Assembly (NCBI GenBank): GCA_963709585.1
Contig: CAVPXI010000004.1
Coordinates: 160,001-224,000, forward strand
Length of the DNA stretch: 64,000 bases
DNA from: Candidatus Dormiibacterota bacterium
GTDB lineage: Bacteria > Chloroflexota > Dormibacteria > Aeolococcales > Aeolococcaceae
Reading direction: 5' to 3'
A program made the translations under genes and the position numbers. The notes beneath the pieces were generated by a model, which saw nothing but the letters and a program-made list of their open reading frames with translations, was not told the DNA's origin and did no database searches. This document shows, in pieces, positions 46,994-53,013 of this stretch (position 1 is its first letter; the number at the start of each line of letters is the position of its first letter).

Positions 46994-47992
46994 TCAGGTT
47001 TTACCCCGTTTCGCGGGACTCGACGCATACAGTGCCGCGGCCGCGGCATGAGTCTCCGCCATGTGCCGACGCAGCGACGCCGGTTCGAGCACCTCGACGT
47101 TGGCGCCCCACCGCAGCAACCATGGGCGCATCTCAACCTCGCCGGCAACGTCGAGCCGCACCTCGATCCCGCCGCCGGGCAGGTCTGTCCGTCTGGCACG
47201 GGCGGGCCATGGGGTCTCATCGACCCACTGACGCGCCTCGGGTGAGAAACGCAGCACCACCCGGTCGGCGCCGGCGCCCTGCCAGATGGCCCACGAGGCA
47301 CCGAGCACTATGTCGATGTCGAAGTCGGCCGGGACCGAGAACGTTGTCGGCAGCAGGCGCGCCGACCGGATACGGTCGAGCCGGAACGAGCGAACCTCGC
47401 GGGACACGGAGTCGCGCGCGAAGACGTAGATGTGCCGCCCCTCTGCGGTCGGCTGGATGAAAAACGGACGAAGATCGCGACGGGTCTCATTGCCCTTGGC
47501 GTCGACGTAGCGAACCTCGATCTCGCGGTGGCTGACGAAGCCGTCGATCACGGTGCGTTCGACCTTGAGCCGCTCGGTGTCAGCCGGCTGGCGCTCGGCG
47601 GCGATAAGGGTCCGGCGCAGGTATTCGCTCACGACCGGCACGCTCAACGCGCGCGAGAGGTGGGCGAGCGCGCCGACCAGCGCGGGATCCTGCTCGGTGC
47701 GCACCTGCTGGAGCAGGCGCACGGCCACAAGGAGCAACGTGGCCTGGTAGTGGTCGAGCTGCAACGGGGGCAGCAGGCTGCCCTTGCCGATCCGCCAGCG
47801 ACCTCCGGTCTCCTCGACGTCGATGCCGGCGCTGTCGCGAAGGGTGGCGACGTAGCGTTGCACCGTGCGCGGGTTGACCTCGAGCTCGTCGGCGAGTTGA
47901 TTGGTGGTCAGCCCGACCTCGGTTTCACAGAGGCGTGCGAACAGCTTGATGACGCGGAGTTGCTTTTCTCCCTTTTCGTACACGCGTGGCAC
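46994..47992 (-). CDS. HTH-WYL-WCX transcriptional regulator (YafY/PafC/DriD-like)
   Basis: [62 protein letters not shown]. Confidence 0.92.
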
Positions 47993-48001
47993 ATGACGAG
48001 C

Positions 48002-48531
48002 CTAGCGATTTGCCGGGGCCGCGGACTCGATGTCGAGTGTGTAGCTGAGCAGCACCATCCCGTCCGGTCGTGCCTGCGGGCTGGTGGGCGCGAAACCAAG
48101 GCTTGCATACAGCTGCTGCGCCGCCGTCATGACCGGGTCGGTGTCCAACGTCATGACCTGCTTGCCGTGGGCCCTCGCCGCATCGATGCACGCCAACATG
48201 AGGCGGCGAGCAATCCCCCGTCCACGATGGTCCGGGCTCACCCCGAGCATACGGACATGCGCCTCGTCTGGCGCCAGGGGGTCGGCCACCCCGGGGCTGA
48301 TTCGCGAGTTCGAGCTCCAGGGTTACCGATCCCGCGATGACGCCATTTTCCACCGCCACCAACACGATGGCCCGGCCGGCCCGGCTTCCCACGTCGGCGA
48401 TTCTCGCCAGGTACGCCTCCCAGCCGGGCGAGTCAGGCGTCAGAAACTCGCGGAAGGCGCGCACGGTCGAACTCGCCTGCGGCCTCGTACTCGAACTCGC
48501 GGATCGGGCGGATCTCGATCTCGTCAGGCAC
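48002..48531 (-). CDS. GNAT N-acetyltransferase (frameshifts near 48465 and 48295)
   Basis: IEIRPIREFEYEAAG, YLARIADV, VRMLGVSPDHRGRGIAR, AQQLYASLGF. Confidence 0.85.
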
Positions 48532-51800: not shown

Positions 51801-52303
51801 CGGTGTTTGTGGAGCATCAAGGCGATCGCGTTCGGTCCGATGCGGAGGCGGGGCGTGTCGGCGACGTCATCGACCAGCTCATCCGATCCGCGTGGCGGGA
51901 CGACCGAGGCCATATGCGTGCGCTGTCGCTCGACGACATCGTAGTCGTCGCACCGTACAACGCGCAGGTCGCGTGTCTTCTCGAGTCGCTGCCGCCGGGT
52001 GCGAGAGTGGGCACCGTCGATCGCTTCCAGGGGCAGGAAGCCGCGGTCAGCATCTTCTCGATGGCGACGTCGAGCGTCGAAGACCTGCCGCGCAATCTCG
52101 AATTCCTGTTCAGCCTCAACCGCCTCAACGTGGCAGTGTCGCGAGCGCGCGGGCTCTCGATCCTGGTCTGCTCGCCCGAACTGCTCCGTGCTCGTTGCCG
52201 TACGCCGGAGCAGATGCAACTCGTCAATGCGCTATGCCGCTTTGTGGAGATGGCAGAGCCGTGGATCACCGCGCCGGTGGGCGCGATCATGCTGCCGGTA
52301 TGA
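48837..52303 (+). CDS. TM0106-family RecB-like nuclease / RNase H-like / DNA2-NAM7 (SF1) helicase fusion (frameshifts near 49215 and 50835)
   Basis: TATDL..YLACGH, GRADFL, YEAADAKLAR, LQLCEY, HCNTC..C; FFDMEG, HIYHYAAYE, SYSLKKVE, YNERDC; GPPGAGKT, IVDEAGQ, TVDRFQGQE, NRLNVAVSRAR. Confidence 0.9.
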
Positions 52304-53013
52304 CCGCCGATTCGCTCAAAACCCGCCTGCTGCAAACGCTCGATGCGGCCTCCACTCGAGAGGCCGCGCTGCTTGCGCTGTGTGACGATTCCCCGCCGTC
52401 CGAGGCCGGTCGCTGGACCGCGAAGGACAACGTCGCGCACCTCAGCAGCTGGCGTGAGCATGCGACCCGTACCCTCGATGCGGTGCGCCTCGGGAAACCA
52501 GTCGAAGGACCAGCCAATGAGAGCGACCTTGACGGGCGCAACGCGGAGATCTACGAGGCTCATCGCGATAACTCGGCGGCCACGGTCCGTGCTGCCGCAA
52601 GCGACAGTTACGCGGCGCTGATCGAGGCGGTGAAGGCGTGCACCGACGAGGATCTGATTCGTGACCGCCCCGGTGACGGTGGCCCGGTGTGGCGTGTCAT
52701 CCCCGGCAACGGTCATGGTCACGTCGCCCAGCACCTCTCGTACTGGGCTGCCGAGCACGACGATCAAGCAGGCGCGGAGGACGCCGCGAGATGGGCATAT
52801 TCGCTTGACACCGATCTCTTCCCCGACAACCAGGCAATCGCCGACTACAACTACGGCTGTTTCTACGCGCGGAACGGACGTGCTGACGAGGCGCTGCCGC
52901 TGCTGGGAGCCGCCCTCCGGTCGCGTCCTGAACTGCGCAGCTTCGCGCTCGACGATGCGGACATCGAGCCCATCCGCGACGATCCCCGCGTGCAGAGCCT
53001 CCTCGGCCCCTGA
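52300..53013 (+). CDS. DinB/ClbS/DfsB-like four-helix bundle fused to a C-terminal TPR
   Basis: WTAKDNVAHLSSW, NGHGHVAQH; TPR YNYGCFYARNGRADEALPLL..DADIEPIR; ATGA overlap with the helicase gene. Confidence 0.78.
   Translation: MTADSLKTRLLQTLDAASTREAALLALCDDSPPSEAGRWTAKDNVAHLSSWREHATRTLDAVRLGKPVEGPANESDLDGRNAEIYEAHRDNSAATVRAAASDSYAALIEAVKACTDEDLIRDRPGDGGPVWRVIPGNGHGHVAQHLSYWAAEHDDQAGAEDAARWAYSLDTDLFPDNQAIADYNYGCFYARNGRADEALPLLGAALRSRPELRSFALDDADIEPIRDDPRVQSLLGP

Follow-up and report, generated by a model that had tools for sequence, protein, structure and literature searches.

A predicted WYL-family regulon that includes a TM0106-type nuclease-helicase in Candidatus Dormiibacterota

We have examined a 64,000-nucleotide stretch of DNA, referred to here as the window, from a Candidatus Dormiibacterota bacterium (assembly GCA_963709585.1, contig CAVPXI010000004.1, positions 160,001 to 224,000), and within it the locus at 46994-53013, where the gene for a WYL-domain transcription factor stands close to that for a large nuclease-helicase of the TM0106/COG2251 family (gene and protein are both called NH below). 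All positions are in the numbering of the window; the genome as a whole comprises 3.5 Mb in 24 contigs and has 68% G+C. On the minus strand, a GNAT acetyltransferase gene (48002..48531; Pfam Acetyltransf_1 on its C-terminal piece) is the first gene of a unit that continues into the WYL gene (46994..47992, 332 amino acids). On the plus strand, a small open reading frame (ORF) of 83 amino acids (48586..48837) is followed by NH (48837..52303, 1154 amino acids after discounting two spurious bases) and by a gene for a protein of 237 amino acids (52300..53013) in which Pfam and NCBIfam recognize a DinB_2/DUF1706 domain and a C-terminal TPR end-of-group domain (DinB-TPR below). The start and stop codons overlap in the sequence TGATG at 48835-48839 between the small ORF and NH, and in ATGA at 52300-52303 between NH and the DinB-TPR gene, as the original prediction for this locus had described; its account of two units that diverge across a 54-bp gap (48532-48585) carrying a perfect palindrome was likewise confirmed.

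As assembled, NH is split over three reading frames and the GNAT gene over three pieces. Indels had been suspected here from the outset, and we found four single-base insertions, at 48309 and 48470/1 in the GNAT gene and at 49213 (an extra T) and 50822 (an extra A) in NH. Contigs from four public runs (three studies), compared over 47900-53100, lack the inserted base in every run that covers the position (4/4, 3/3, 3/3 and 2/2, respectively), although the run with the best coverage may be the window's own source, so that the public runs are not fully independent; one public contig matches the window exactly except at the gap. A short-read metagenome-assembled genome that is 96% identical (L049) also lacks both insertions in NH, and in 13 loci of the genus that we examined the NH frame is open over 1110-1317 codons. 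We take the four insertions to be consensus errors of the window assembly and, because they are absent from the public contigs and, for the NH pair, from the 96%-identical genome, we treat NH and the GNAT gene as intact; on the same comparisons we reject the reading of the two as pseudogenes. Other split genes in the window or elsewhere in the genome may likewise be insertion artefacts.

The WYL protein scores above the cut-offs of HTH_11 (31.9 bits), WYL (40.4 bits) and WCX (67.1 bits), and by its winged helix-turn-helix (HTH), WYL and WCX domains appears to be an HTH-WYL-WCX factor of the DriD/PafBC class. WYL activators of LexA-independent damage responses are known from Actinobacteria (PafBC, SiwR), from Caulobacter (DriD) and, lately, from Acinetobacter; the library that we searched held no literature linking WYL proteins to Dormibacterota. 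When a profile of ten orthologues of the window protein was compared with solved structures it matched DriD over its full length (E 4e-25), PafBC of Arthrobacter (E 6.5e-18), PafB (E 1.6e-9) and also PafC. That list of matches, 12 in all at E <= 0.01, does not name BrxR or CapW, which are linked to defence and whose structures we take to have been solved. The match to PafB begins at profile position 41, which corresponds to chain residue 46, so that two invariant arginines of the window protein, R42 and R46, line up with R46 and R50 of PafB, the residues described as reading a GTC triplet (PMC8635444). Only two WYL genes are present in the genome, on one contig but not adjacent, the distance between them being about 135 kb. 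Because the protein encoded at our locus comes from a single gene it is presumably a homodimer. The other gene, at 342850-343839 of contig C4 (L157:4850-5839), encodes an HTH-WYL-WCX protein that is 30% identical and has a similar RTV.R recognition helix; it lies beside a gene for a phage-type integrase, has no copy of the palindrome near it, and may regulate a mobile element.

The palindrome, GCGACAGA-ca-TCTGTCGC, lies at 48546-48563, belongs to neither strand, and has 8-bp arms around a 2-nt centre. When the GNAT-to-NH interval was aligned across 29 distinct loci (the window, 27 others from the genus and the distant relative L062), the core GCGACA-N6-TGTCG(C/T) of this candidate operator, whose full form in the window is GCGACAGACATCTGTCGC, proved unchanged in 29/29 and the flanking bases variable. 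The loci L018 and L041 were left out of the alignment on account of a 1.4-kb insertion that divides their divergent promoter region; the palindrome, the promoter and the small ORF are retained there on the NH side. On the plus strand, ten bases separate the half-site TGTCGC (48558-48563) from the -10-like hexamer CATGGT (48574..48579; of the form NANNNT, with its A and T columns conserved in the alignment), and six nucleotides separate this hexamer from the ATG of the small ORF at 48586. The mRNA is predicted to be leaderless, and if transcription starts at this ATG then the right half-site occupies -28 to -23. On the minus strand, a half-site, 1 nt, the -10-like hexamer TAGGGT (48539..48544; conserved columns A..TA) and 7 nt lead to the GTG of the GNAT gene at 48531, a start that is predicted to be leaderless or nearly so. 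No promoter of the sigma-70 type with both -35 and -10 elements was found in 46500-53600. RNA runs contain only minor fractions (0.07-0.12) of the stretch.

This geometry recalls the motif published for PafBC in vivo, tGTCgg(N10)tA(N3)T with its 5' part at -23 to -28 (PMC8635444), which TGTCGC(N10)CATGGT of the window fits. When 48 distinct sites from six genomes of the genus were read in both orientations, a NANNNT hexamer was placed at offset 11 from TGTCG in 33/96 orientations, as against 0-9 at each other offset from 0 to 29; 33/48 sites have such a hexamer on at least one side, and 25/48 also have a start codon 4-9 nt beyond it. These counts overstate the support because the six genomes belong to one genus and are kin, although the single sharp peak at offset 11 is clear. 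An operator kept at a constant distance from a -10 element, within a promoter that appears to have no -35, is what would be expected of the WYL class. In the genomes G041 and G042 the arrangement of the GNAT-WYL side recurs, as TGTCGC-N1-TATGGT-N8-ATG, before an operon that contains the WYL orthologue; no full palindrome was found near the orthologues of these two genomes, only this half-site abutting the -10 hexamer.

Elsewhere in the genome the palindrome is enriched, with CGACA-N6-TGTCG occurring 16 times against 3.6 expected from base composition. Five relatives have 6-16 strand hits of GCGACA-N6-TGTCGY, compared with 0-3 for the reversed pattern, and a genome of this genus holds about 6-10 operator sites. 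The genes downstream of the sites are orthologous between genomes. One site (5/6 genomes; here C21:99724, L113) lies at a gene for a 959-amino-acid UvrD helicase fused to a PDDEXK_1 nuclease, divergent from a SIR2 gene; no AdnA-like partner of this helicase-nuclease was found within 8.8 kb downstream. Other sites precede genes for a 424-amino-acid protein of no family (four genomes; here C6:234719, L114), a protein of 113 amino acids ahead of hisS-aspS (this genome and relatives; C23:158698, L117), one of 131 amino acids (this genome and one relative; C7:131315, L118) and a small ORF of about 60-140 amino acids after a PadR gene (this genome and four relatives; C15:72155, L116), the last three without a Pfam family. 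The sites ahead of these four genes keep the same spacing, and in two of the relatives a further site belongs to a fusion of an ADP-ribosylglycohydrolase with a dual-specificity phosphatase. The genome also carries AGAACATCCGTTTG at lexA (C11:86406-86594) and AGTACAAATGTTCG at recA (C23:254141), sequences of the GAAC/GTAC-N4-GTTC type that we take, from consensus sequences, to be LexA boxes, and which suggest an SOS box of the Gram-positive/cyanobacterial type in this phylum. Neither lexA nor recA has a palindrome of the GCGACA-N6-TGTCG type. Control of the NH operon by LexA was considered and rejected, the 54-bp gap containing no LexA box and only the GCGACA-N6-TGTCGC palindrome.

The protein that this promoter would deliver has a distinctive architecture. 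NH matches TIGR03491, which defines the TM0106 family, at 224.4 bits (cut-off 97.45), and further contains RNase_H_2 (93.2 bits), AAA_11 (49.5 bits) and AAA_12 (92.8 bits); a TIGR03491 region followed by tandem helicase domains places it, on sequence grounds, in TM0106/COG2251, and these matches bear out the earlier description of a fusion of about 1150 amino acids joining a PD-(D/E)xK nuclease, an RNase H-like domain and a superfamily 1 (SF1) helicase. In order, we find a Cas4/RecB-like PD-(D/E)xK nuclease with four conserved cysteines, a DnaQ-like RNase_H_2 exonuclease and an SF1B helicase like Upf1 and Dna2. Across 52 N-terminal NH sequences from several phyla, the RecB-type nuclease motifs (D121, E138-x2-D141-x-K143 and Q155-x3-Y159), the cysteines C221-x2-C224-x5-C230 and the exonuclease motifs (D331-x-E333-x-D335 and Y493-N494-x2-D497) are invariant, and C22 is kept in at least 90%. 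The helicase motifs (Walker A GKT, DEAGQ, GDPRQL, TVDRFQG and VAVSRAR) are kept throughout the genus and in the pieces read from the window, so that none of the three enzymatic domains, two nucleases and one helicase, has lost its catalytic residues. Against solved structures, the helicase part matches Upf1 (E 6e-20) and DNA2 (E 2.4e-13), and a profile of residues 1-740 finds no match (best E 0.56).

NH resembles eukaryotic Dna2 and bacterial nucleases of the AddB/Cas4 type in coupling a PD-(D/E)xK nuclease, marked by the cysteines C22 ... C221-x2-C224-x5-C230, to an SF1B 5'-3' helicase, and it differs from them in having an RNase_H_2 exonuclease and about 220 unassigned residues between nuclease and helicase. 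The cysteine pattern may hold an iron-sulphur cluster, as in Cas4, AddB and Dna2. A second point of comparison is the repair of mitomycin C damage in Bacillus subtilis, whose exonuclease MrfB we take to belong to the same Pfam family (PF13482) as the exonuclease domain of NH. MrfA and MrfB too pair a helicase with a DEDDh exonuclease of the DnaQ superfamily (PMC11194089), but they do so as distinct polypeptides, the helicase is of superfamily SF2, and a PD-(D/E)xK nuclease is missing. The NH profile did not match the solved MrfB core at E <= 1; the likeness is a lead only. The COG2251 architecture was noted in 2014 as that of an uncharacterised protein with a predicted 3'-5' exonuclease, a PD-(D/E)xK domain and tandem AAA domains (PMC3985635). 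The literature that we searched contained no functional study of the family, the work on COG2251 being all classification or bioinformatics, in agreement with what the original prediction stated, and its at least 4669 homologues are named only 'putative nuclease'.

NH is present in 23/24 other genomes of the genus and in 0/16 genomes searched from the sister family, and of the 20 loci fetched from the genus 18 share a block of RecQ-WYL-GNAT on one side of the gap and small ORF-NH-DinB-TPR on the other. Within the genus the small ORF was not found in L020 and the DinB-TPR gene was not found in L023; L024 and L025 are divergent NH copies without the block. The RecQ helicase gene (44541..46691, minus strand, 716 amino acids; Pfam DEAD, Helicase_C, RecQ_Zn_bind, RQC and HRDC) lies downstream of the WYL gene on the same strand in 18/18 syntenic loci of the genus and was not found beside the WYL gene in L062, so that its adjacency is confined to the genus. 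Between the two, a 76-amino-acid ORF (46758..46988, minus strand) corresponds to the N-terminal half of MsrB/SelR (Pfam SelR, profile positions 1-48 of 116, E 2e-15) and may be a remnant or another assembly break. Synteny among genomes of one genus is weak evidence of function, and we therefore turned to more distant relatives of NH.

Among species-representative genomes, 598 pattern matches yielded 530 confirmed relatives, and 50 NH loci at 40-52% identity, from Chloroflexota, Acidimicrobiia, Solirubrobacterales, Eremiobacterota and other Dormibacterota, could be analysed. These loci have no conserved neighbours, the biggest cluster being one of luciferase-like monooxygenases in 6/50. An HTH-WYL-WCX gene is the immediate neighbour of NH in 3/50 (L062, L064 and L068; 93 neighbours scanned), and in L062, as in the genus, the GNAT gene is retained beside the WYL gene. 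The promoter recurs as well. Of the 49 loci with enough upstream sequence, 4/49 have GACA-N6-TGTC no more than 170 nt from the start of NH (L073, L081, L088 and L099; expected 0.13, as derived from the remainder of the loci), all four with N11 spacing, and TGTC-NN-N10-TANNNT precedes NH in 5/49 (expected 0.07) or, in a relaxed form, in 10/49 (expected 0.69). At L081, L099, L057 and the 52% copy of genome G002 (L025) the promoter leads directly into the start codon of NH. In each of the five genomes tested for it, a WYL orthologue is encoded away from NH; two of these orthologues are 58-59% identical and three 34-36%. Counts of YGACA-N6-TGTCR in five distant genomes had a high background (2-11 per strand for the control) and were not used as evidence. 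We also note that an extended palindrome, CGACAGACAGCTGTCG, occurs at least six times per genome in the distant genomes G043 (unpublished) and G044, which suggests a sharper operator consensus there.

The other two genes of the operon have a different history. The small ORF has no family in Pfam, NCBIfam or PADLOC and gave no usable hit in the ESM Atlas, but 28 further distinct homologues of 74-87 amino acids were found, each after the palindrome, N10 and NANNNT, and sharing the motifs YLRRAQALLAAR.ELF and RQL.LPLPRER..RRRARMVR. It evolves fast (33-65% identity), with a diversity of 0.298/0.255/0.456 at the three codon positions. Because the third position is the most variable and the length is a multiple of three in 26/29, we consider the small ORF to be translated and mildly constrained. 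Its AlphaFold 2 model is of low confidence (pLDDT 65), has one helix at residues 18-35, and is otherwise mostly disordered; in one genome of the genus the ORF is shortened in frame to 25 codons. Homologues were found only in the genus and in L062, the latter through a promoter-guided search after tblastn had detected none beyond the genus, and the ORF is absent where NH itself is predicted to be leaderless (L081, L099, L057 and L025). We take it to be an accessory protein or a coupling ORF. The DinB-TPR protein, at 29.5 bits for DinB_2 (cut-off 24.8), 33.4 bits for DUF1706 (cut-off 24.2) and 49.2 bits for TPR_END_plus, belongs by its profile scores to the DinB/YfiT-like superfamily; its gene is present in 17/18 syntenic loci of the genus, and tblastn found it in none of the distant loci L056-L112. 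The idea that the three genes form a conserved system was therefore not borne out, each of the two smaller partners also being cut, or not found, in single genomes of the genus. The three-gene set is lineage-specific because, apart from the small ORF in L062, neither partner was found in distant loci; what the neighbourhood survey did uphold is the recurrence of a WYL gene beside NH, in 3/50 distant loci and 6/11 plasmid loci (below). Beyond the operon, G+C falls to 0.63 within 52000-56000, over the end of the DinB-TPR gene and the ABC transporter genes at 53452-55451, and the intergenic stretch 53028-53144 is rich in indels relative to L049.

Taken together, these comparisons make it likely, in our judgement, that the WYL protein, the operator and NH are linked. 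The expectation of an undescribed WYL regulon that includes NH is upheld by comparison only, through the conserved operator, the PafBC-like geometry, about 6-10 sites per genome, the recurrent link between WYL and NH and a regulator nearest to DriD and PafBC; on these grounds the regulatory reading is well supported. As to what the regulon does, we lean towards, without pressing it, a model in which a WYL activator that senses single-stranded DNA (ssDNA) independently of LexA switches on NH as a Dna2-like processor of DNA ends for repair. The WYL protein, presumably a homodimer, would bind GCGACA-N6-TGTCGC in the 54-bp gap, with the plus-side half-site at -28 to -23, ten bases before the -10 and with no -35, in the layout of the PafBC '-26 element'. 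By homology to DriD, PafBC and SiwR, the window protein may sense ssDNA and mediate induction by damage: ssDNA arising from damage would be bound by its WYL domain, and the factor would then recruit or adapt RNA polymerase. A leaderless mRNA beginning at the ATG of the small ORF would carry the small ORF, NH and DinB-TPR, and on the minus side the half-site abutting the -10 of the GNAT-WYL unit would suit autoregulation. NH, with its predicted iron-sulphur nuclease similar to Cas4, its exonuclease of 3'-5' polarity and an SF1B motor moving 5'-3', might unwind and trim damaged or broken DNA ends, and the same operator may drive a small LexA-independent regulon comprising the UvrD-type helicase-nuclease, the sirtuin, the ADP-ribosylglycohydrolase-phosphatase and several uncharacterised small proteins.

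The proposed site shares its dyad and CGAC/GTCG half-sites with that of DriD and its exact spacing from the -10 with that of PafBC. In Caulobacter crescentus, DriD is described as a homodimer that binds ATACGAC(N7)GTCGTAT, overlapping a missing -35 element, and the driD promoter as bidirectional and driving a small ORF of unknown function and a larger gene (PMC13004042). Our locus resembles that system in its palindromic half-sites, its single regulator gene, its small regulon and the divergence of the regulator from a small ORF plus a larger gene. It differs in that the CGAC/GTCG spacing is N8 rather than N7, the promoters look leaderless, the phylum is another, the similarity is modest (phmmer E 1.2e-7) and the cargo is NH, a UvrD-nuclease and a sirtuin, whereas the targets described for DriD are didA, bapE, recJ, dnaG and a TonB transporter. 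With PafBC the locus shares a promoter that lacks a -35 and consists of a half-site hexamer (-28 to -23), N10 and a -10 hexamer (PMC8635444), two recognition-helix arginines spaced by four that fall on R46 and R50 of PafB, and independence from LexA; RecQ and helicase-nucleases are among the genes reported to depend on PafBC, and RecQ, RecB and RecA fall in a pafBC mutant of M. smegmatis (PMC5656591). PafBC is described as a heterodimer encoded by two adjacent genes beside pafA and recognizing a non-palindromic site (PMC6789036), whereas here there are one gene and a perfect palindrome, and the PafBC regulon has about 150 genes including recA, against about 6-10 sites here, with recA not among the perfect ones. 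The lone WYL gene at the locus, the two non-adjacent WYL genes of the genome and the palindromic site rule out PafBC proper. SiwR of Mycobacterium smegmatis is reported to be a homodimeric WYL activator that binds ssDNA, acts at the -26 region and controls adjacent DinB/YfiT-like genes under genotoxic stress (PMC10693628); a DinB-like gene is present here too, but it has a TPR tail and is the last and least conserved gene of an operon whose main cargo is NH.

A different purpose for the same machinery is suggested by homologues on plasmids. Among 72,556 plasmid records, 117 contain a match to NH, mostly from Alphaproteobacteria, and in 60 the match extends over at least 80% of the protein. We viewed 11 of the 12 best plasmid loci. 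A WYL gene diverges from NH in 6/11 (H3, H6, H7, H10, H11 and, with a frameshift, H8); compared with one another, the plasmid WYL proteins are 42-84% alike, and their identity to the window protein is 29-32%. Of the gaps, 5/6 contain TG(T/A)CA-N5-TG(A/T)CA, C, N10 and TA, the same promoter formula. Three of the loci have a small hypothetical ORF (89-252 amino acids) between WYL and NH, with no similarity to the small ORF of the window. The WYL-NH pair thus comes back in three phyla, with neighbours that suggest damage responses in some loci and defence in others. Under a defence reading the WYL protein would sense ssDNA or damage caused by the entry of a phage or plasmid, NH would degrade the invader, and the small ORF and DinB-TPR would be lineage-specific accessories. 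What speaks for a role of this kind is that plasmid homologues of NH adjoin McrBC-like, HEPN and TIR genes: NH is followed by a gene for an AAA ATPase of about 1080 amino acids and one for a McrC/restriction endonuclease in 3/11 loci (H7, H8 and H10), and HEPN or TIR genes adjoin the WYL gene in 4/11 (H7, H8, H10 and H11). In H9 NH comes after a multiubiquitin/E2/ThiF operon, and in one locus after genes for a large helicase and a 1034-amino-acid protein. Some NH neighbours in Solirubrobacterales are Vsr, T5orf172, ResIII and AAA_13, the predicted regulon includes a SIR2 gene, and ssDNA-sensing WYL regulators of defence systems, such as CapW, have been described (PMC11662680).

Several observations count against that role in the genus itself. 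There NH is a syntenic core gene rather than the variable gene of an island, which we count in favour of repair, and it has no McrBC-like partner; none of 50,697 phage records contains NH. On the locus, the hits from PADLOC 2.0 were all of a generic kind, to SF1 helicases (MkoA, DpdJ) and to WYL proteins, and it has no family for the small ORF, the nuclease or exonuclease parts of NH or the DinB-TPR protein; the regulon proteins fared alike, with no family for the SIR2 protein and generic helicase or WYL hits only. Among solved WYL structures, those of the activators DriD and PafBC are closer to the regulator than any that is linked to defence. The damage context also counts for repair, given the RecQ gene beside the WYL gene and one plasmid copy of NH (H6) in a damage-tolerance cluster with SRAP, AlkB, dinB and an error-prone polymerase. 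We therefore favour repair moderately over defence, and regard a defence role in Dormibacterota as rather unlikely. Two of the plasmid arrangements deserve mention in their own right. On plasmids of Leisingera, Aminobacter and Rhizobium daejeonense (L183-L185), an NH-AAA-McrC operon diverges from a WYL gene that has a HEPN or TIR gene beside it, an arrangement that resembles a restriction-like system under WYL control and seems not to have been described. On Phenylobacterium plasmid pA (L179), NH closes an operon that also comprises multiubiquitin, E2/UBC, ThiF-type E1 and DUF6527 genes.

The logic of control might also be the opposite of what we propose, with the WYL protein acting as a repressor of the BrxR/CapW type that sits on the palindrome until released by ssDNA, or with another factor, such as the second WYL protein, binding the palindrome in its place. 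The half-site on the GNAT-WYL side abuts the -10 hexamer, a position suited to repression, and the second WYL protein has a similar recognition helix. Homodimeric WYL repressors bind palindromes (PMC11662680). A promoter with no -35 and a single fixed distance from site to -10 (offset 11, 33/96) is, on the other hand, what would be expected of an activator that replaces the -35 contacts, as published for PafBC and DriD. Moreover, the second WYL gene has no site near it and itself lies beside an integrase gene, and in L062 the operator stays with the lineage of the window WYL protein; we consider either form of this alternative improbable. That there is no system at all, only neighbours by descent in one genus and a decaying NH pseudogene, is very hard to credit: same-genus synteny proves little, the window sequence breaks NH over three frames and the GNAT gene into three pieces, and most distant NH genes have unrelated neighbours, but public contigs show none of the four frameshifts (nor does the 96%-identical genome show the two in NH), all catalytic motifs of NH are retained, the WYL-NH pairing recurs in three phyla, and the operator and its spacing are conserved.

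Returning to the model of an ssDNA-responsive activator that induces NH for repair, a number of points weigh against it. Among the distant NH genes, 47/50 have no WYL neighbour and 39/49 no recognizable half-site promoter, and the genome of L088 (G043), which is unpublished, supplies one of the four palindromes, one of the five strict half-sites and one of the five WYL-orthologue cases. The operator sites come from six genomes of the same genus and are not independent, so that their counts inflate the support. recA is not among the perfect palindrome sites, unlike in the PafBC regulon, and the sirtuin and the ADP-ribosylglycohydrolase are as compatible with defence as with repair. The second WYL protein, given its recognition helix, could be the one that binds the palindrome, and the company of NH on plasmids (AAA/McrC, HEPN/TIR and the ubiquitin-like operon) points away from repair and towards a conflict with foreign DNA. 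Finally, sequence comparison shows directly the anatomy of the locus, its conservation, the promoter geometry, the regulon sites and the repeated link between WYL and NH; from these we infer binding, activation, the ssDNA signal, the leaderless start sites, the enzyme activities and the repair role.

It is tempting, if tentative, to see repair and defence as two uses of one device. WYL and a COG2251 nuclease-helicase may form an old two-gene module that crosses phyla, serving as the core of a chromosomal LexA-independent damage regulon in Dormibacterota and Chloroflexota and, with McrBC-like, HEPN or TIR partners, as an inducible weapon against foreign DNA on alphaproteobacterial plasmids; its promoters would then be '-26 element' promoters in a palindromic, homodimeric form that bridges DriD and PafBC, and through them an activator responsive to ssDNA would fire a Dna2-like end processor. 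Because the WYL-NH pair occurs in cultivable Alphaproteobacteria, for instance on plasmids of Novosphingobium and Rhodobacter, the hypothesis is open to bench tests without growing Dormibacterota. The locus offers a compact predicted regulon and, in an uncultured soil phylum, a testable formula for operator and promoter, namely a DriD-like palindrome with the -26 spacing of PafBC, and it provides a first biological context for the TM0106/COG2251 nuclease-helicase. If the proposal is correct, sigma adaptation by WYL factors would be far older and wider than Actinobacteria, and a family of several thousand unstudied enzymes would gain a function.

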